64,000 nucleotides of DNA. It comes from a virus (lineage: Duplodnaviria; Heunggongvirae; Uroviricota; Caudoviricetes). Shown here one piece after another: positions 2,886 to 29,459 of the stretch. How positions within the stretch are numbered: the stretch's first letter is position 1; every line of letters starts with the position of its first letter. The DNA is taken from the IMG/VR virus record IMGVR_UViG_3300017917_003521, one strand, 5' to 3'. A program made the position numbers and the translations under genes. The notes under the pieces are model-generated. The model saw only the letters and a program-made list of their open reading frames with translations, made no database searches and had not been told where the DNA came from.

Positions 2886-3505
2886 TGCAAAGATTTGAAA
2901 TTATAAATTACTTGACATCTGTTAATGATTATAAGTCATTTTTAGAGATAGGAACACAAGCTAAAATAAATTTTAGTTCAGTTAATGTTTCTAGAAAAGT
3001 TTGTGTTGATCCTGATCCTAATGCAGGTGCTGATTTTCAAATAACATCAGATGAATACTTTGAAAATAATTTTGAAAAATTTGACATAGTATTTGTTGAT
3101 GGATTACATCATGCAGACGTTGCATATAGAGATATAGTAAACTCATTAAAAAGACTAAATCCTGGTGGTTGTGTTGTTGTACATGATGTAATTCCATTTT
3201 CATATGAAGCCCAGATTATACCTTTAGAAAAGGCATCTGATATGGGTACAATAGCTTGGAATGGTGATGTTTGGAAGGCTTGGATTAAGTTAAGAACCGA
3301 AAGAAACGATTTATCTATGAAATGTGTTAATACGGATCATGGTTGCGGAATTATACACTTTACTAATCCAGGTGAAGGTGATTTTATTAATAATTTTCAA
3401 AATGGATACTATAAATATGATTCTAATTCTATTCTGAATAATCTCAATCTTATAGAACCTGATGAATTTTTAAATAAATATATTGAAAGAGTTCCTAAAA
3501 TATGA
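2885..3505 (+). CDS. Class I SAM-dependent methyltransferase (Methyltransf_24-like)
   Basis: FLEIG, FDIVFVDGLH, LNPGGCVVVHD motifs. Confidence 0.75.
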   Translation: MQRFEIINYLTSVNDYKSFLEIGTQAKINFSSVNVSRKVCVDPDPNAGADFQITSDEYFENNFEKFDIVFVDGLHHADVAYRDIVNSLKRLNPGGCVVVHDVIPFSYEAQIIPLEKASDMGTIAWNGDVWKAWIKLRTERNDLSMKCVNTDHGCGIIHFTNPGEGDFINNFQNGYYKYDSNSILNNLNLIEPDEFLNKYIERVPKI

Positions 3506-5439: not shown

Positions 5440-6536
5440 TGAGTGACAATTTTTGTATAATAGTTTTTTCACATGCTGATAGTGAAGAAAAAGAAGAAAT
5501 TCTTTATAATTCCTTATCATCAATAAAGCGCCTTAACATATCAATAATTCTAGCATCACATATTCCTGTGAGCGAAAGAAATCAAAACCTATGTGATTAC
5601 TATGTTAAAGATAGTAACAACCTTATATTAAGTGAGTCGGATATTATAAATAATCCGGTTAAAACATCAAAAGATATTTATAACACAACTGATTATTTTG
5701 GTGGATTAAAATTTGAGACATCTGTTTTTAAAAAAACATATCAAGCTGGTGTTTTTAATCTTTATATAAGTGCTTTTAGATTTGCAAATAATATAGGTTT
5801 TAAAAATGCGATTTTATGGGAGTTTGATTATATACTTGGTGATAAATCAGTTTTTTTTATAAATGATTCTATTAACAGAATTTTATCCGAAGGAGTAGAA
5901 TGTTTATACTTTAATAGTATTATTAACATATTTAATAATGATATTATTCAAAAGTCTATAGATTGTTGTTATGCAATTCCTGCATTTTTTAATTTAGAGA
6001 AGTTTAACTCTATTTGTCCTATCAATTTTATAAAAAGTGGAAAAGAGTATAATGAAATAAGTCGACTGATGATAATGGAACAATGGATAAAATCATATAT
6101 TGTAGATAGATGTGAGAGAAAAATAGAATATCCATATGATCATTATAACAATTTATTACCGGATACTAAACTAGGACAAGTACACAGTCAAAGAGATAAC
6201 TACCTTCTATCTGGTTTGAGAAGTGGTTTATATTTTAATGACGATAGAACATCTTTATGTTTACTTTTTGCAAATATGTCACTAAATCTACTTAGTTCAA
6301 CTTTTCAGATATATCATGATGGTAATTTAATATTTGATATAAAAAGAGATTTATATCCAAAAAGTTGGTTTTATGACTTTTTAAATAGTGTAATTGTTGA
6401 CTTATGTAAGTCAAAAAATGGTTGTCTTATTAAAGAAACTGTTGAAGATTTAAATACTAAAAAAGTTGATATTTTTGAGTATGTAATAAATGAAGAAAAT
6501 ATAGATTTTGTTTGTAAATTAAAAAAATTCTCTTAA
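5439..6536 (+). CDS. Hypothetical protein, paralog of the C-terminal half of 3502..5439
   Basis: Shared IILASH / CDY / EFDY-EYD motifs. Confidence 0.45.
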   Translation: MSDNFCIIVFSHADSEEKEEILYNSLSSIKRLNISIILASHIPVSERNQNLCDYYVKDSNNLILSESDIINNPVKTSKDIYNTTDYFGGLKFETSVFKKTYQAGVFNLYISAFRFANNIGFKNAILWEFDYILGDKSVFFINDSINRILSEGVECLYFNSIINIFNNDIIQKSIDCCYAIPAFFNLEKFNSICPINFIKSGKEYNEISRLMIMEQWIKSYIVDRCERKIEYPYDHYNNLLPDTKLGQVHSQRDNYLLSGLRSGLYFNDDRTSLCLLFANMSLNLLSSTFQIYHDGNLIFDIKRDLYPKSWFYDFLNSVIVDLCKSKNGCLIKETVEDLNTKKVDIFEYVINEENIDFVCKLKKFS

Positions 6537-6563: not shown

Positions 6564-6582
6564 AAACTTTTTTAATATATAC
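6564..6582 (+). promoter_or_regulatory. Putative phage promoter AAACTTTTT(T)AATATATAC upstream of tRNA-fMet
   Basis: Same motif recurs at about 7881, 15463 and 26085 ahead of tRNA arrays. Confidence 0.55.
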
Positions 6583-6721: not shown

Positions 6722-6757
6722 TAAAAGAAATAAGAAAACAATATAAAACGAATTAAA

Positions 6758-6835
6758 ATGAACACTGTTATGAACATAGCGTATTATTATGAGGGGGAGC
6801 GTAGCTCAAACGTCAGACTAATGTCTATGTCGTAA
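6758..6835 (+). CDS. Leader peptide 1 MNTVMNIAYYYEGERSSNVRLMSMS (putative Tyr/Glu attenuator)
   Basis: 25-aa ORF between promoter and terminator; TAT-TAT-TAT-GAG-GGG-GAG run. Confidence 0.75.
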   Translation: MNTVMNIAYYYEGERSSNVRLMSMS

Positions 6836-6857
6836 TGGTTTCATTATGATATTAACT

Positions 6858-6893
6858 AACCCAGTCTGACTTATCAGACTGGGTTTTTTGTTT
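6858..6893 (+). terminator. Intrinsic terminator/attenuator before Glu/Tyr tRNA array
   Basis: AACCCAGTCTGA-CTTA-TCAGACTGGGTT plus U-tract. Confidence 0.85.
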
Positions 6894-7915: not shown

Positions 7916-7996
7916 ATGAAAAATTTAACTAACATATCAACAGCAATAATCGAAGGCGGCGCGGGAGCGAATGTCACTGGCTGGTTTATGTTATAA
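7916..7996 (+). CDS. Leader peptide 2 MKNLTNISTAIIEGGAGANVTGWFML (putative Ile/Gly/Ala attenuator)
   Basis: 26-aa ORF after the promoter motif; ATA..GCA-ATA-ATC-GAA-GGC-GGC-GCG-GGA-GCG. Confidence 0.75.
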   Translation: MKNLTNISTAIIEGGAGANVTGWFML

Positions 7997-8020
7997 TCTT
8001 TCATCAAAAGAAGTAAACGG

Positions 8021-8053
8021 AACCCAGTCAGTGAAAATTGACTGGGTTTTTTT
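8021..8053 (+). terminator. Intrinsic terminator/attenuator before Ile/Gly/Ala tRNA array
   Basis: AACCCAGTCAGT-GAAA-ATTGACTGGGTT plus U-tract. Confidence 0.85.
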
Positions 8054-15484: not shown

Positions 15485-15595
15485 ATGAAAACAATGAATT
15501 TAAATATGAATCTTAATCTAACAGTGGTGAATACGTTATGTATTAGACCAGTGGAGGGTTTTGCCATATCTAAAAATTTGTTTTCAGTCAACTAA
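15485..15595 (+). CDS. Leader peptide 3 MKTMNLNMNLNLTVVNTLCIRPVEGFAISKNLFSVN (putative multi-amino-acid attenuator)
   Basis: 36-aa ORF between promoter cassette and terminator. Confidence 0.75.
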   Translation: MKTMNLNMNLNLTVVNTLCIRPVEGFAISKNLFSVN

Positions 15596-15623
15596 TGTAA
15601 GACAAATAAACTAAAGATAAGTG

Positions 15624-15655
15624 AAACCCTCAGACAAAAATCTGAGGGTTTTTTT
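15624..15655 (+). terminator. Intrinsic terminator/attenuator before the large tRNA array
   Basis: AAACCCTCAGA-CAAAAA-TCTGAGGGTTT plus U-tract. Confidence 0.85.
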
Positions 15656-22471: not shown

Positions 22472-22587
22472 GACTTATATATTAAAAAAGTAATCACACA
22501 ATATTATTTAAAATAATTCTTAATAAAATTTGGCAATTGTTAATAAGTATTGTATATTTGTAATAATAAGTCTAAATATAAATAAAG

Positions 22588-25593: not shown

Positions 25594-25971
25594 ATGAAAT
25601 ATTTAAAATCAATAAATGAAGAATTTGACAGAGTTGTTGGATTCAGATACTCAGATCCAAAAGAAGCATATAAGATTACGGCTTTATGTATGGGTGAAGA
25701 TATAACTAATGATAAAGTAGAGAAGGCTTTAGGTAAAGTTAGTAATCTAAAATTCAAACCTGAAACTATTAATGTTAAAAATAGTGAAGAGGAAACATTA
25801 ATTGAAACACCTAATGGTGTTGTTAGTATTGATGCTTTTGTTAACTTTGATATAGTAGTATATACAGATAGAGAGATAAGATCTATCATTGAAGAGTTAG
25901 GTGAAATACTATCTTCAGCATTTGATATAGAAATATTAAACTTTAGAGTTAAAAAAGATTTTGGTATTTAA
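25594..25971 (+). CDS. Hypothetical protein (MKYLKSINE)
   Basis: TTAATATATA motif 5 nt upstream of ATG. Confidence 0.65.
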   Translation: MKYLKSINEEFDRVVGFRYSDPKEAYKITALCMGEDITNDKVEKALGKVSNLKFKPETINVKNSEEETLIETPNGVVSIDAFVNFDIVVYTDREIRSIIEELGEILSSAFDIEILNFRVKKDFGI

Positions 25972-26028
25972 AATAATATTATTATCTTTGTACTCACAGA
26001 AGAAAAATAAATAAAAAATAAAAAAATA

Positions 26029-26102
26029 TTTGACAAATTAAAACTTTGTTGTATATTTGTATAAAATAAGAACAAAAGGAACAAAAACTTTTTAATATAT
26101 AC
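26029..26102 (+). promoter_or_regulatory. Promoter cassette (host-type TTTG-N19-TATATTTG plus phage motif), duplicate of 15430-15480
   Basis: 30-nt identity CAAAAGGAACAAAAACTTTTTAATATATAC at 15451-15480 and 26073-26102. Confidence 0.7.
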
Positions 26103-26106
26103 TGAA

Positions 26107-26205
26107 ATGAAAAACTTAAACTTAAATATTGTTAACCCGCAACCACAAGTTGTAATCGATCAGGATCCTGGTTCGAAAGGGGCTAACTATGTGGTTTTAA
26201 GTTAA
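26107..26205 (+). CDS. Leader peptide 4 MKNLNLNIVNPQPQVVIDQDPGSKGANYVVLS (putative Pro/Asp attenuator)
   Basis: 32-aa ORF between promoter cassette and terminator. Confidence 0.75.
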   Translation: MKNLNLNIVNPQPQVVIDQDPGSKGANYVVLS

Positions 26206-26226
26206 ACAAGATATTAACTATGAAAC

Positions 26227-26261
26227 AAACCCAGTTAGTCGAAAGATTAACTGGGTTTTTT
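26227..26261 (+). terminator. Intrinsic terminator/attenuator before Pro/Asp tRNA array
   Basis: AAACCCAGTTAGTC-GAAA-GATTAACTGGGTTT plus U-tract. Confidence 0.85.
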
Positions 26262-26273
26262 GTTTTAACATAA

Positions 26274-26347
26274 CGGGAAGTGACTAAGGTTTTAAGCACG
26301 GGTGTTCTGGAGACATCAGTTAGTCGGTTCGATTCCGACCTTCCCGA
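26274..26347 (+). tRNA. Atypical tRNA-Pro (TGG; C33, A37)
   Basis: C1-G72, A73; GGTGT-TCTGGAG-ACATC. Confidence 0.6.
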
Positions 26348-26354
26348 CAAAAAT

Positions 26355-26426
26355 GGTCTAGTGGTGAAGTGGCTATCATATCTGCCTGTCACGCAGAAGT
26401 AGAGGGATCGAAACCCTTCTAGACCG
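26355..26426 (+). tRNA. tRNA-Asp (GTC), T loop ATCGAAA
   Basis: TCTGC-CTGTCAC-GCAGA, G73. Confidence 0.85.
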
Positions 26427-26488
26427 CACGAAGTATAATTGGATAGAAACGTACTCTTTAGGGAATAGAGTAAAATAATTCTCAAAAT

Positions 26489-26561
26489 GGTCTCGTGGTT
26501 GAATGGTTACAATACCACCCTGTCACGGTGCGAGGTGCGGGTTCGAGTCCCGTCGAGACCG
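26489..26561 (+). tRNA. tRNA-Asp (GTC)
   Basis: CCACC-CTGTCAC-GGTGC, G73. Confidence 0.88.
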
Positions 26562-26566
26562 CAAAA

Positions 26567-26656
26567 GGATTTATAGCTTAACTAGACGAAAATCGTCGCT
26601 GGTAGAGTAGCCCCGGTGCGTGGGGGAAGGTCTTGGTTCGAGTCCAGGTAGGTCCG
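26567..26656 (+). tRNA. tRNA-like RNA with D-loop hairpin insertion and non-canonical anticodon loop (GGTGCGT)
   Basis: GGATTTA/TAGGTCC acceptor, canonical T arm, G73. Confidence 0.5.
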
Positions 26657-26661
26657 CAAAA

Positions 26662-26735
26662 GGTTCGTTAGTAGAGTTGGTTACAATATCGCACTGTCAC
26701 TGCGAAGGTCACGGGTTCGAATCCCGTACGAACCG
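26662..26735 (+). tRNA. tRNA-Asp (GTC)
   Basis: TCGCA-CTGTCAC-TGCGA, G73. Confidence 0.92.
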
Positions 26736-26740
26736 CAAAA

Positions 26741-26812
26741 GGTCTTGTCGTCCAATGGTAGGATAGCCCGTTGTCTGCGGGATGGTTGCGGGTTCGAATC
26801 CCGTCAGGACCG
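26741..26812 (+). tRNA. tRNA-Asp (GTC), pyrimidine at 37
   Basis: CCCG-TTGTCTG-CGGG, G73. Confidence 0.75.
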
Positions 26813-26821
26813 CTAAAATTA

Positions 26822-26898
26822 CGAGATGTTGGGGAGCCCGGTCACCCCGCCTGCTTTGGGAGCAGGAGAACTCGCAGGTTCGAATCCTGCCATCTCGA
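26822..26898 (+). tRNA. tRNA-Pro (TGG)
   Basis: CCTGC-TTTGGGA-GCAGG, C1-G72. Confidence 0.9.
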
Positions 26899-26952
26899 CT
26901 ACTCAAAGATAGGGAGTCCGACATTTTTAATATATAAAATAAAAAATGTCGG

Positions 26953-27534
26953 ATGAACTTGAAAGAGGAAATTAAAAATTGTTATAGTGTATCAGATTTT
27001 TGTAGATTATTAAATTTATCACAAGGTGGTGGTGGATTTTCTAAAGCGAAAAAAATAATACAAGATAACAATCTGGATATATCACATTTTGATAAGGGTT
27101 ACTTGAAAAGACAAAAGAATCCTAAAATTGAAAAGGTTTGTCCAGTTTGTGATAAGAAATTTGAAACGGTTACTTGGAGCAATAGAAAAGAAAAAGTTAC
27201 TTGTTCTAAGTCGTGTGCTAACTCTTACTTTAGAAGTGGTGTTGATAACCCAAACTGGAAAGAAGAATCATACAGAACTACTTGTTTTTATTATCACAAA
27301 AAAGAATGTATAATATGTGGTGAGGAAAAAATTGTAGAGGTTCATCATATGGATGAAAATCATATGAATAATAAACCCGAAAATTTAGTACCTTTGTGTC
27401 CTACTCATCATCAATATTGGCACTCAAGATATAAAGAGGAAATAGAAGATAAAATATATAACTACATAAAAGAATTTAAAATGAGAACAACAACACAATA
27501 CCAGCAACAACAACAAATTAATCCAACGGATTGA
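26953..27534 (+). mobile_element. Free-standing HNH homing endonuclease; last 17 codons are the Gln leader peptide
   Basis: CPVC...CSKSC, CIICG..VEVHHMDENHMNNKPENLVPLCPTHH. Confidence 0.85.
27481..27534 (+). CDS. Leader peptide 5 MRTTTQYQQQQQINPTD (putative Gln attenuator)
   Basis: In-frame ATG after an A-rich stretch; CAA-TAC-CAG-CAA-CAA-CAA-CAA. Confidence 0.8.
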   Translation: MRTTTQYQQQQQINPTD

Positions 27535-27559
27535 TAACGGTATTGTATTGTCAAAATTC

Positions 27560-27596
27560 AAACCCGAATCAATTCAAATTGGTTCGGGTTTTTTTT
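27560..27596 (+). terminator. Intrinsic terminator/attenuator before tRNA-Gln x3 and glnS
   Basis: AAACCCGAATCAAT-TCAA-ATTGGTTCGGGTTT plus U-tract. Confidence 0.85.
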
Positions 27597-27598
27597 AT

Positions 27599-27669
27599 TG
27601 TCTTATAGTGTAACGGCAGCACAAGAGATTTTGACTCTCTTAGTCTAGGTTCGAATCCTAGTGAGACAA
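27599..27669 (+). tRNA. tRNA-Gln (TTG)
   Basis: AGAGA-TTTTGAC-TCTCT, U1-A72. Confidence 0.92.
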
Positions 27670-27675
27670 CAACAT

Positions 27676-27747
27676 TGCTCTATAGTATATGGGTTATCAT
27701 ATCTGTCTTTGAAACAGATGAACTTGGTTCGAGTCCAAGTGGAGCAA
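27676..27747 (+). tRNA. tRNA-Gln (TTG)
   Basis: TCTGT-CTTTGAA-ACAGA, U1-A72. Confidence 0.88.
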
Positions 27748-27754
27748 CAAACAA

Positions 27755-27825
27755 TGCCTCGTAGTGTAATGGCAACACAGAAGATTTTGACTCTTCTATT
27801 CTAGGTTCGAGTCCTAGCGAGGCAA
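27755..27825 (+). tRNA. tRNA-Gln (TTG)
   Basis: GAAGA-TTTTGAC-TCTTC, U1-A72. Confidence 0.92.
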
Positions 27826-27854
27826 CTAAAAATAACATAAAAGATATAAATACT

Positions 27855-29459
27855 ATGAATTTCATTGAAGAAAAAATATTAGATAAAGGTAATCTTGATA
27901 AATTAACTTTAAGATTCCCACCAGAGCCAAATGGTTATTTACATATTGGTCACGCTAAATCCATTATCTTAAATTTTGGATTGGCTGAAAAATATAATAG
28001 ACCTTGTAACTTGAGATTTGATGATACAAATCCAACTACTGAAGATACACATTTTGTTGAATCTATAATAAAAGATATAGAATGGTTAGGCTACAAGCCT
28101 GCTAATATTTTCTATACATCTGATTACTTTGAATTTATTTACAAATGTGCTGTTACTTTAATTAAGAAAGGTCTAGCTTATGTTGATGATTCAACATCTG
28201 AAGAAATTGCTAACTTAAAAGGAACACCCACAGTTGCTGGTAAAGATTCACCATACAAGTCAAGAACTATTGAAGAAAACTTAGATCTATTTAATAGAAT
28301 GAGATTAGGTGAATTTGTTGAAGGTTCTAAAATTCTTAGAGCTAACATTGATATGGCTTCTCCTAATATGATTTTAAGAGATCCTGTTATTTATAGAATA
28401 ATATCTAAGTCACATCATAGAACTGGTGATACTTGGAAGATTTATCCAATGTATGATTTTGCTCATCCTTTAAGTGATTATAACGAAGGTATTACTGATT
28501 CTTTATGTACTTTAGAATTTGAAGTTCATAGACCTTTATATATGTGGGTCTTAGAAAATTGTGATTTAGAAAATCCTTTACCAGAAGAAACTGAGTTTGC
28601 TCGTTTGAACATTGACTATACAGTTATGTCAAAGAGAAAGTTAAAGAGATTAGTTGAAGAATCTTATGTTGATGGTTGGGATGATCCAAGAATGCCTACT
28701 ATCTCTGGATTAAGAAGAAGAGGTTATACACCAAGTGCTATTAAAGATTTTTGTGATAGAATTTCTGTTACTAGAAAAGATGGTGTTGTTTCTTATTCTT
28801 TACTTGAAGAATGTCTAAGAACCGAATTGAATAAGACTGCTCCAAGATTAATGGGTGTCATGGATCCTGTTAAGTTAGTTGTTACTAATTTTGAAGGTGA
28901 AGGATATTGTGAAATTGACAATAATCCAGAAGATGAAAATGCTGGTAAAAGAAAAGTTTCTTATTGTAATGAATTTTGGATTGAAAAAGAAGATTTCAGA
29001 GAAGAAGCCAATAACAAATATCACAGATTAAAGTTAGGTGGTGAAGTTAGATTAAAAGGATTGTTTATAGTTAAAGCCAATGAAATAATTAAAGATGAAA
29101 ACGGTGAAATTATAGAAATCAGATGTACTTATGACCACGATGCTTGGATTGGTGTTACTGAAAAGAGGGTTAAAGGTACTATTCACTGGGTTTCTGTTAA
29201 CCACGGAGTTAAGATGAAAGTAAACGATTATGATAGATTATTTATCAATAGTTCACCAGACAAAGGAGATGAAGATTTTACAACTCATGTCAATCCTAAC
29301 TCATTAGTTATTAATGATAATGCTATCTTTGAGGAAAATGTAAAAGATTGTAAAGTAGGTGTGCCTGTTCAAATGATGAGAAAAGGTTACTATGTTTTAG
29401 ATAAAGATGGTAAGTCTTGGAACAGAACTGTAAGTTTGAAAGAAGGATGGGTAGGTTAA
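27855..29459 (+). CDS. glnS: Glutaminyl-tRNA synthetase
   Basis: RFPPEPNGYLHIGHAKS, RFDDTNP, IYPMYDFAH, CTLEF, MSKRKL, KGTIHWVS. Confidence 0.96.
   Translation: MNFIEEKILDKGNLDKLTLRFPPEPNGYLHIGHAKSIILNFGLAEKYNRPCNLRFDDTNPTTEDTHFVESIIKDIEWLGYKPANIFYTSDYFEFIYKCAVTLIKKGLAYVDDSTSEEIANLKGTPTVAGKDSPYKSRTIEENLDLFNRMRLGEFVEGSKILRANIDMASPNMILRDPVIYRIISKSHHRTGDTWKIYPMYDFAHPLSDYNEGITDSLCTLEFEVHRPLYMWVLENCDLENPLPEETEFARLNIDYTVMSKRKLKRLVEESYVDGWDDPRMPTISGLRRRGYTPSAIKDFCDRISVTRKDGVVSYSLLEECLRTELNKTAPRLMGVMDPVKLVVTNFEGEGYCEIDNNPEDENAGKRKVSYCNEFWIEKEDFREEANNKYHRLKLGGEVRLKGLFIVKANEIIKDENGEIIEIRCTYDHDAWIGVTEKRVKGTIHWVSVNHGVKMKVNDYDRLFINSSPDKGDEDFTTHVNPNSLVINDNAIFEENVKDCKVGVPVQMMRKGYYVLDKDGKSWNRTVSLKEGWVG

Follow-up and report, generated by a model that had tools for sequence, protein, structure and literature searches.

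Huge phages carry many tRNAs and aminoacyl-tRNA synthetases (PMC7162821), and how their production is controlled is the question raised by a locus of the tailed phage record IMGVR_UViG_3300017917_003521. The stretch of DNA analysed here, called the window in what follows, is 64,000 nucleotides (nt) long, has 30% G+C and holds 37 tRNA genes. Between positions 26,953 and 29,459 it encodes an HNH nuclease whose open reading frame (ORF) runs into a short glutamine-rich leader peptide, followed by an intrinsic terminator, three tRNA-Gln(UUG) genes and glnS, which codes for glutaminyl-tRNA synthetase (GlnRS). This locus is likely a leader-peptide (ribosome-mediated) transcription attenuator that senses charged tRNA-Gln and gates the three tRNA-Gln and GlnRS; the phage would then probably make both only when glutamine decoding is slow. 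The locus offers a simple and directly testable answer to the question of control, in which the codons, the tRNAs and the synthetase of a single amino acid would form one feedback loop.

The features present are those of an attenuator: a short ORF, a run of cognate codons, an intrinsic terminator, an alternative pairing and a geometry that fits a ribosome (Table 1). Six of the 17 leader codons are for Gln (5 CAA and 1 CAG), and since Gln makes up 2.7% of the codons in the long ORFs of the window, the probability of at least six Gln in 17 codons is 3.7e-6. The first-pass annotation of the sequence had placed a terminator, three tRNA-Gln(TTG) genes and GlnRS after this leader, and each of them was recovered. 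HIGH and MSK motifs are seen in the translation of GlnRS, and models of glutamyl-tRNA synthetase remained under their cut-offs. No promoter would fit into the 2 nt between the T-run of the terminator and the first tRNA-Gln, so that read-through is the only way in which the tRNA-Gln genes and glnS can be made. The start of glnS is found 28 nt past the last tRNA-Gln with no intervening terminator, and the gene that follows lies on the opposite strand.

The segment that follows the Gln codons provides the alternative pairing. A duplex between ATTGAT..CGG (27530-27540) and CCG-A-ATCAAT, put forward beforehand from inspection of the letters, turned out to be the best one that this segment can form with the 5' arm of the terminator. 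It corresponds to GGATTGAT..CGG paired with CCG.ATCAATTC, its two sides being the antiterminator strand, named region 2, and the terminator bases 27564-27575. Across relatives, the best duplex of this kind is more stable than those of dinucleotide-shuffled sequences at each of 14 loci (mean z -3.5), and among 27 further unique alleles 26 have an antiterminator with p < 0.05 (mean z -4.0). When divergent terminators were confronted in a cross-matrix (loci L007, L009, L010, L012 and L014; the loci of this comparison carry L numbers), the cognate antiterminator was the best partner by row and by column. The same holds for the five attenuators of the window, whose own terminator is the best partner in 5/5 rows. 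A gap of 9-13 nt separates the last Gln codon from the pairing part of region 2 in 18/18 loci, and the leader stop codon is inside region 2 in 13 of them and at most 22 nt downstream in the remainder. Because of this gap and of the position of the stop codon, a ribosome stalled on the Gln codons would end just short of region 2, and one that has reached the stop codon would lie over it.

Covariation bears on the other helices. MAFFT mis-registers the terminators, and RNAalifold run on its alignment found only a small hairpin and part of the stem; a covariance-model alignment was used instead. The terminator is present at every locus, and on this alignment its stem has compensatory changes at 12/12 core pairs, with 97% of cells paired. 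The whole nested structure reaches a covariation score of 0.368, against 0.141 for shuffles (0/500 reach the observed value) and 0.03-0.064 for slid controls. A long-range helix with moderate support, P1, joins leader codons 3-8 to a motif past the stop codon. Its mean z is -1.6, it shows some true covariation (TAC/GTA to TTC/GAA), and its inner helix has compensatory changes at 5 of 6 pairs with 80% of cells paired. A small hairpin between regions 1 and 2 is 96% paired across 44 sequences, mostly with invariant positions or one-sided changes.

The same arrangement recurs in relatives of the phage. Most related huge phages (Mahaphage-like, with Bacteroidota-type promoters) lack the HNH gene and have a free-standing Gln-rich mini-ORF of 15-26 codons. 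In the nearest public records, LR756502 (642 kb) and LR745206 (634 kb), which are among the largest phage genomes known, the mini-ORFs encode MTTSFQQQQQQQINRTD and MTTTQQIQQQQINQTD, respectively, and in both the terminator comes next, ahead of tRNA-Gln genes and glnS. Scanning viral contigs on the basis of GlnRS yielded 26 further loci. Leader and terminator are present in 13/13 of the viral loci with a readable upstream region and tRNA-Gln directly before glnS, the exceptions among loci with tRNA-Gln in this place being the truncated locus L005 and the locus L011, whose leader and terminator are replaced by a GIY-YIG gene (1753-2475) that extends to tRNA-Gln. Another 30 or so unique alleles, arranged in the same way, came from a pattern scan of metagenomes, the terminator being found at +52 to +63 and tRNA-Gln at +61 to +72 past the leader stop. 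A covariance model, R1, was built from eight Gln-leader alleles; it recovers 47 leaders, 44 of them distinct and including very divergent ones, and scores 108.9 bits at the leader of the window.

Of the whole peptide, only the Gln run (4-7 codons in the 18/18 loci analysed) is common to divergent loci; CAA and CAG replace one another in it, and the flanking peptides are wholly different (MVNITINIQQQQQQQTLNKGSGIALS, MNTLFTQQQQLNLRKLKLD, MKNLTLQQQQQMIKLD, MSQTQTHIQQLQQQFDTKG). By reading, there is a weak trend relating CAG codons in the leader to a tRNA-Gln(CUG) gene. Among viral loci without tRNA-Gln before glnS a leader was found in 1 of 13, L012 (377-505), where the Gln leader MSQTQTHIQQLQQQFDTKG, a terminator of its own and an antiterminator that matches it precede an unknown ORF and glnS. 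L012 would, judged by these elements, be the same switch controlling the synthetase alone. No such leader was found at the 80 nearest bacterial glnS loci, mostly of Bacteroidota, and inheritance of the leader together with a host glnS was rejected on this ground.

We infer that the switch operates as follows. Transcription would enter from upstream, either by read-through of the Asp/Pro tRNA array (promoter 26029-26059) or from the motif TTTTTAATATATA, and a ribosome would translate M-R-T-T-T-Q-Y-Q-Q-Q-Q-Q-I-N-P-T-D. When Gln-tRNA(Gln) is plentiful, it would reach the TGA at 27532-27534 and cover region 2 (27528-27540), the terminator (27560-27596) would form and RNA polymerase would halt 2 nt short of the first tRNA. 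When Gln-tRNA(Gln) is scarce, the ribosome would stall on the CAA/CAG run (27496-27516) with its leading edge about 10 nt downstream, melting P1 and the 1:2 hairpin and freeing region 2. Region 2 would then pair with the terminator 5' arm (27564-27575), no terminator would form, and the tRNA-Gln genes and glnS would be transcribed. The outcome would be a feedback loop of supply on demand.

Several observations weigh against this reading. The antiterminator pairs are conserved on the structural alignment and do not covary (79.6% of cells paired vs 77.3% in shuffles); few of them are compensatory and a slide by -1 gives a higher covariation score. Support for the antiterminator comes from per-sequence energies and from divergent or paralogous loci. 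In the window itself the antiterminator is modest, with -11.5 kcal/mol vs -17.4 kcal/mol for the terminator and, against shuffles, z -1.7 (p 0.07) in one test and z -2.8 (p 0.02) in another. Shuffled sequences do as well as the 1:2 hairpin (mean z -0.7), and about 8 of 18 loci have a weak P1 or none at all. The counts drawn from the 47 loci recovered by model R1 are not independent events, many of these loci being close relatives. No promoter was identified directly upstream of the Gln leader, which has no Shine-Dalgarno sequence, so initiation there is a prediction; the absence of Shine-Dalgarno sequences is usual in Bacteroidota. Tight coupling of transcription and translation in the presumed host is an assumption.

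A conserved antiterminator that does not covary and a 1:2 hairpin not above chance would suit a scheme with no sensing at all, in which a constitutive and partly leaky terminator fixes a low level of tRNA-Gln and GlnRS or insulates neighbouring arrays, the CAA-rich frame being a by-product of an RNA element or of repeat slippage; CAA repeats are, moreover, of low complexity in a genome of 30% G+C. This scheme leaves unexplained why the Gln run is always in frame between ATG and stop, why the stop stands on the segment complementary to the terminator arm, and why the 9-13 nt spacing is kept in unrelated leaders. Nor does it account for CAA/CAG swaps that preserve Gln, for sister leaders spelling the amino acids of their own arrays, or for the match of each leader with its own terminator. 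We regard a locus without sensing as improbable and retain attenuation by a leader peptide.

Direct sensing of tRNA by the RNA would be another way to the same output. In such a T-box-like leader the CAA codons would act as specifiers that bind the anticodon of uncharged tRNA-Gln, no translation being needed. The synthetase output and the terminator/antiterminator logic do recall the T-box leaders of Firmicutes, and the CAA run is complementary to the UUG anticodon. A search of positions 25900-27900 against Rfam (E <= 1) gave only tRNAs and chance-level matches, and the T-box reading was rejected for lack of any T-box or leader-family match in this interval. The element is also only about 115 nt long, has by reading no recognisable Stem I or T-box sequence, and keeps an ATG, a frame and a stop that are unnecessary for a T-box; we give direct sensing hardly any credence. 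Like T-box riboswitches, the attenuator proposed here would let the charging state of one tRNA switch a terminator before a synthetase gene, and unlike them it would do so by ribosome stalling on codons and not by direct binding of tRNA.

Closer parallels are found among the leader-peptide systems. In the trp, his, leu, thr and ilv attenuators, the regulatory codons are followed by a region 2 that opens with a stop codon; the 2:3 and 3:4 pairings exclude each other, and a T-run completes the element. The four-part layout is the same here, and the distance between codon run and region 2 agrees with a ribosome footprint. The locus differs from these enterobacterial attenuators, to which no sequence relationship was found: it has no Rfam leader match, a weak 1:2 element, a presumed Bacteroidota host and a leader without Shine-Dalgarno sequence, and would regulate decoding components instead of biosynthetic enzymes. 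In E. coli the pheST attenuator has the Phe-rich pheM leader. As in pheST and in trpS/leuS of Streptomyces, a leader ORF of cognate codons and a terminator/antiterminator precede a synthetase gene in the window. The differences from pheST are that three tRNA-Gln would be regulated first, with the synthetase behind them, that the system is encoded by a phage, and that it would sense Gln; we know of no leader-peptide attenuator sensing this amino acid. Classical attenuators have been found before synthetase genes such as pheST (PMC1262725). Leader-peptide attenuation is a textbook mechanism; in the literature searched it is a matter of amino-acid biosynthesis operons and a few synthetase genes, and no description was found there of leader-peptide control of tRNA genes or of such attenuators in phages.

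Table 1. Features of the Gln attenuator locus and of related elements in the window (positions in nt of the window).
Feature	Position	Strand	Remarks
tRNA-Pro(tgg)	26822-26899	+	5' flank of the HNH cassette
Hairpin TCCGACATTTTT / AAAAATGTCGGA	26917-26953	+	Last base is the A of the HNH ATG; motif TTTTTAATATATA (26924-26936) in the loop
HNH ORF, putative homing endonuclease	26953-27534	+	Single open frame, 193 aa (amino acids), C-terminal ...KEFKMRTTTQYQQQQQINPTD*, without own stop codon
Gln leader peptide ORF MRTTTQYQQQQQINPTD*	27481-27534	+	17 codons; Gln codons 27496-27498 and 27502-27516; stop 27532-27534
Helix P1, 5' strand ACAACACAATACC	27490-27502	+	Long-range, partner 27539-27551; -14.0 kcal/mol, z -3.7 in the window
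1:2 hairpin ATTAATCC-aac-GGATTGAT	27517-27535	+	Small; would hold the antiterminator strand without a stalled ribosome
Region 2, antiterminator strand GGATTGATAACGG	27528-27540	+	Includes stop codon 27532-27534; begins 11 nt past the last Gln codon
Helix P1, 3' strand GGTATTGTATTGT	27539-27551	+	Conserved GG(T/A)AT.GTATTGT motif past the stop codon
Intrinsic terminator AAACCCGAATCAAT-tcaa-ATTGGTTCGGGTTT + T8	27560-27596	+	14-bp GC-anchored stem 27560-27573 / 27578-27591, loop TCAA, -17.4 kcal/mol
tRNA-Gln(UUG), three genes	27599-27670, 27676-27748, 27755-27826	+	ARAGORN; Rfam tRNA 52-65 bits
glnS, glutaminyl-tRNA synthetase	27855-29459	+	534 aa; TIGR00440 669 bits, cut-off 426
Promoter consensus match TTTG-N19-TAtaTTTG	26029-26059	+	Bacteroidota type; ahead of the Asp/Pro leader
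Leader PQPQ..DQDP and terminator	26107-26262		Precedes Pro/Asp tRNA array
Leader YYYEGE and terminator	6758-6890		Precedes Tyr/Glu tRNA array
Leader ..IIEGGAGA.. and terminator	7916-8053		Precedes Gly/Ala tRNA array
Multi-codon leader and terminator	15485-15655		Precedes mixed tRNA array

How can such a leader function with a nuclease gene ending inside it? The HNH ORF had been read as finishing in the Gln-rich leader with no stop codon between the two, and this is what the sequence holds: the last residues of the ORF are MRTTTQYQQQQQINPTD, and the frame continues through the leader to the TGA of the latter. The protein matches the Pfam family PF13391 (HNH_2) with 21 bits, exactly at the cut-off, and the HNH-type families PF16784, PF13392 and PF14412 weakly, under their cut-offs; it has no match in NCBIfam. 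Its EVHH..N..N..CPTHH motif is kept across 471 homologues. Judged by sequence, the gene codes for a free-standing homing endonuclease with putative cleavage activity. Such endonucleases occur in phage tRNA regions, T4 SegB being an example (PMC2330249; also PMC13096335). Like SegB, the HNH gene is a free-standing nuclease gene within a phage tRNA cluster, present or absent among relatives at the same site. Unlike SegB, it is of the HNH and not of the GIY-YIG type, and it is a stop-less ORF that ends in frame inside a regulatory leader. No description of a nuclease ending in this way was found in the literature searched.

Comparison of alleles documents the presence and absence of the nuclease at one site. 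The HNH gene stands at the leader in the window and in L029-31, L073, L077 and L085, and it is absent from L003 and L008, whose leader peptide is identical to MRTTTQYQQQQQINPTD of the window. The expectation that relatives without HNH would keep the poly-Gln mini-ORF was borne out by LR756502, LR745206, L003/L008 and about 25 more metagenomic alleles, all with terminator, tRNA-Gln and glnS. The attenuator is likewise preserved where HNH is present, as the first-pass annotation had supposed, with covariance-model scores of 58-113 bits that cover the same range as HNH-free alleles. The poly-Gln tail was found in 18 of the 120 HNH clusters listed, the closest ones (60-92% identity), and in all tailed members whose context was read it precedes tRNA-Gln. 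HNH homologues at other sites (L033-L038) are placed between other tRNA genes without a poly-Gln tail, in agreement with the prediction that the tail belongs to tRNA-Gln loci; they have no stop of their own and read into the next tRNA gene. The tail as an intrinsic part of the HNH family was rejected, homologues below about 60% identity finishing directly past ...YIKxF with unrelated tails.

The HNH gene would have landed as a free-standing homing endonuclease between an upstream motif and the leader ATG. This position of the insertion, proposed before the comparison was made, agrees with the alleles: the 13-mer TTTTTAATATATA is found 16 nt before the HNH ATG in the window and 5 nt before the Gln-leader ATG in several HNH-free alleles. 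On the 5' side, the 3' end of tRNA-Pro(tgg) precedes HNH in 8/8 alleles compared, among which the upstream block is conserved; this constant neighbour of the cassette suggests where the HNH target may lie. A hairpin of -16 kcal/mol (z -5.7) covers the HNH start and is found at the same place, with sequence changes, in 8/8 HNH alleles. It resembles, with the AT-rich promoter-like motif in its loop, a control known from T4. In the intron and seg endonuclease genes of that phage, read-through transcripts occlude the start, which is accessible on those begun inside the hairpin.

In-frame fusion to the Gln leader is seen with three nuclease architectures. Besides HNH, L010 (1759-2688) and L015 (~1760-2683) have a DUF559 (PD-(D/E)xK-like) nuclease at the same site and in frame with the leader. 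The N-terminal 107 aa, a zinc-finger domain, are common to the L010 protein and the HNH protein of the window (37% identity, E 6e-19), which suggests swapping of nuclease domains on a common DNA-binding module. A third nuclease-like ORF of 236 aa, with zinc fingers and ELD...E.NG..H, is in frame with the leader in L046 (3729-4457, - strand) and in L075; it has no Pfam HNH match, and its similarity to the DUF559-type protein is not significant (E 0.029). Two further HNH-like ORFs are located between the terminator and the tRNA-Gln genes of L046, which together with the third nuclease-like ORF marks this locus as a hot spot of selfish genes. L007 and L016 have a 275-aa ORF at the leader site that is not fused. 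In L029 a GIY-YIG endonuclease gene (1273-2082) is found between the tRNA-Gln array and glnS.

In-frame fusion of a nuclease to the leader is thus common and not universal. It was found in about 7 of 10 nuclease-occupied alleles from unbiased samples vs 1/3 expected, and through at least five different HNH|leader junctions (KEFK|M, KEFKN|M, KFKQEI|M, KEFKI|M, KFKE|M). Such recurrence in three architectures would be expected if the fusion were functionally required, ribosomes that start at the HNH ATG being the main or only ones to read the leader and nuclease synthesis being coupled to the supply of tRNA-Gln. The motif TTTTTAATATATA also speaks for this, as in the window it precedes the HNH ATG instead of the leader ATG. 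Against a requirement, the leader ATG is retained in every fused allele (18/18 protein clusters together with L010, L015 and L046), pointing to selection as a start codon, and unfused states exist at the same site: in L032 the nuclease has its own TAG 5 nt upstream of the leader ATG, and in L080 it is frameshifted. The hairpin over its start may keep translation of HNH low on read-through transcripts. Nor are the fused alleles independent in phylogenetic terms, and running without a stop into the next tRNA gene is a habit of HNH homologues elsewhere. A required fusion, which would refine the attenuator model and not replace it, is a possibility that we hold only tentatively.

We privilege the interpretation that the fusion is tolerated. 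Ribosomes arriving in frame from HNH would be indistinguishable from leader ribosomes and act as such, leaving the switch undisturbed, and on read-through transcripts the leader probably still starts on its own. Given the retained leader ATG and the hairpin over the HNH start, initiation of the leader on its own at 27481 is at least as likely as HNH ribosomes being the sensing ones. If confirmed, the locus would show a mobile gene residing in a regulatory element without breaking it, and more than 40 natural variants, with and without a nuclease fused to the sensor, constitute a ready mutational series.

The Gln unit is accompanied in the window by four more leader/terminator units, each preceding a tRNA array; in each of them one segment finds its best partner in the unit's own terminator. 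Model R1, although built on Gln leaders, also matches 6732-6891. A tempting generalization, about which we are rather doubtful, is that codon-matched leader switches form a genome-wide sensor of decoding stress, to which nucleases have adapted by using the leader as a selected safe harbour. Each tRNA array, here with a synthetase, would then be on only when its codon class is read slowly, with host anticodon nucleases or tRNA depletion among the possible triggers. Nucleases would insert under the upstream motif of the leader, their in-frame translation substituting for or matching leader translation. If the attenuator proposed for the Gln locus is confirmed, phages would measure decoding capacity codon by codon and repair it on demand, which bears on mismatches to host codon usage and on how phages escape defences that target tRNAs.

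The source of the transcripts was approached through promoter motifs. The Bacteroidota consensus TTTG-N18-22-TAnnTTTG has 14 matches in the window vs 4.2 expected from shuffles, and these cluster before tRNA arrays (6511, 6690, 7443, 15307, 25960, 26029, 39152). This enrichment agrees with a Bacteroidota host. The Mahaphage clade includes the four largest genomes, with predicted Bacteroidetes hosts (Al-Shayeb et al. 2020, PMC7162821). No match to the consensus was found between 26100 and 27599, and the one at 26029-26059 is the only upstream match in this orientation; from it we infer that the transcription unit reaching the Gln attenuator probably starts there. The exact 13-mer TTTTTAATATATA occurs in the window at 6569, 15467, 26089 and 26924 on the + strand and at 22476 and 55079 on the - strand. 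Leader ORFs, the HNH gene, a tRNA-Met and other genes follow it at 5-20 nt; two other leaders of the window have it 5 nt before their ATG, and in three cases it lies 25-30 nt past a host-type TAnnTTTG box. This motif may serve as an additional promoter, of phage type, or as a signal for translation.

Some minor features of the tRNA arrays were noted. Right after the Asp/Pro terminator, positions 26274-26347 give a borderline Rfam tRNA (29.8 bits, cut-off 29) that ARAGORN missed. Sequences resembling tRNAs with odd anticodon loops are found in L001 (~3244-3330) and L002 (6485-6575), the latter also having a tRNA-??? at 6420-6493.

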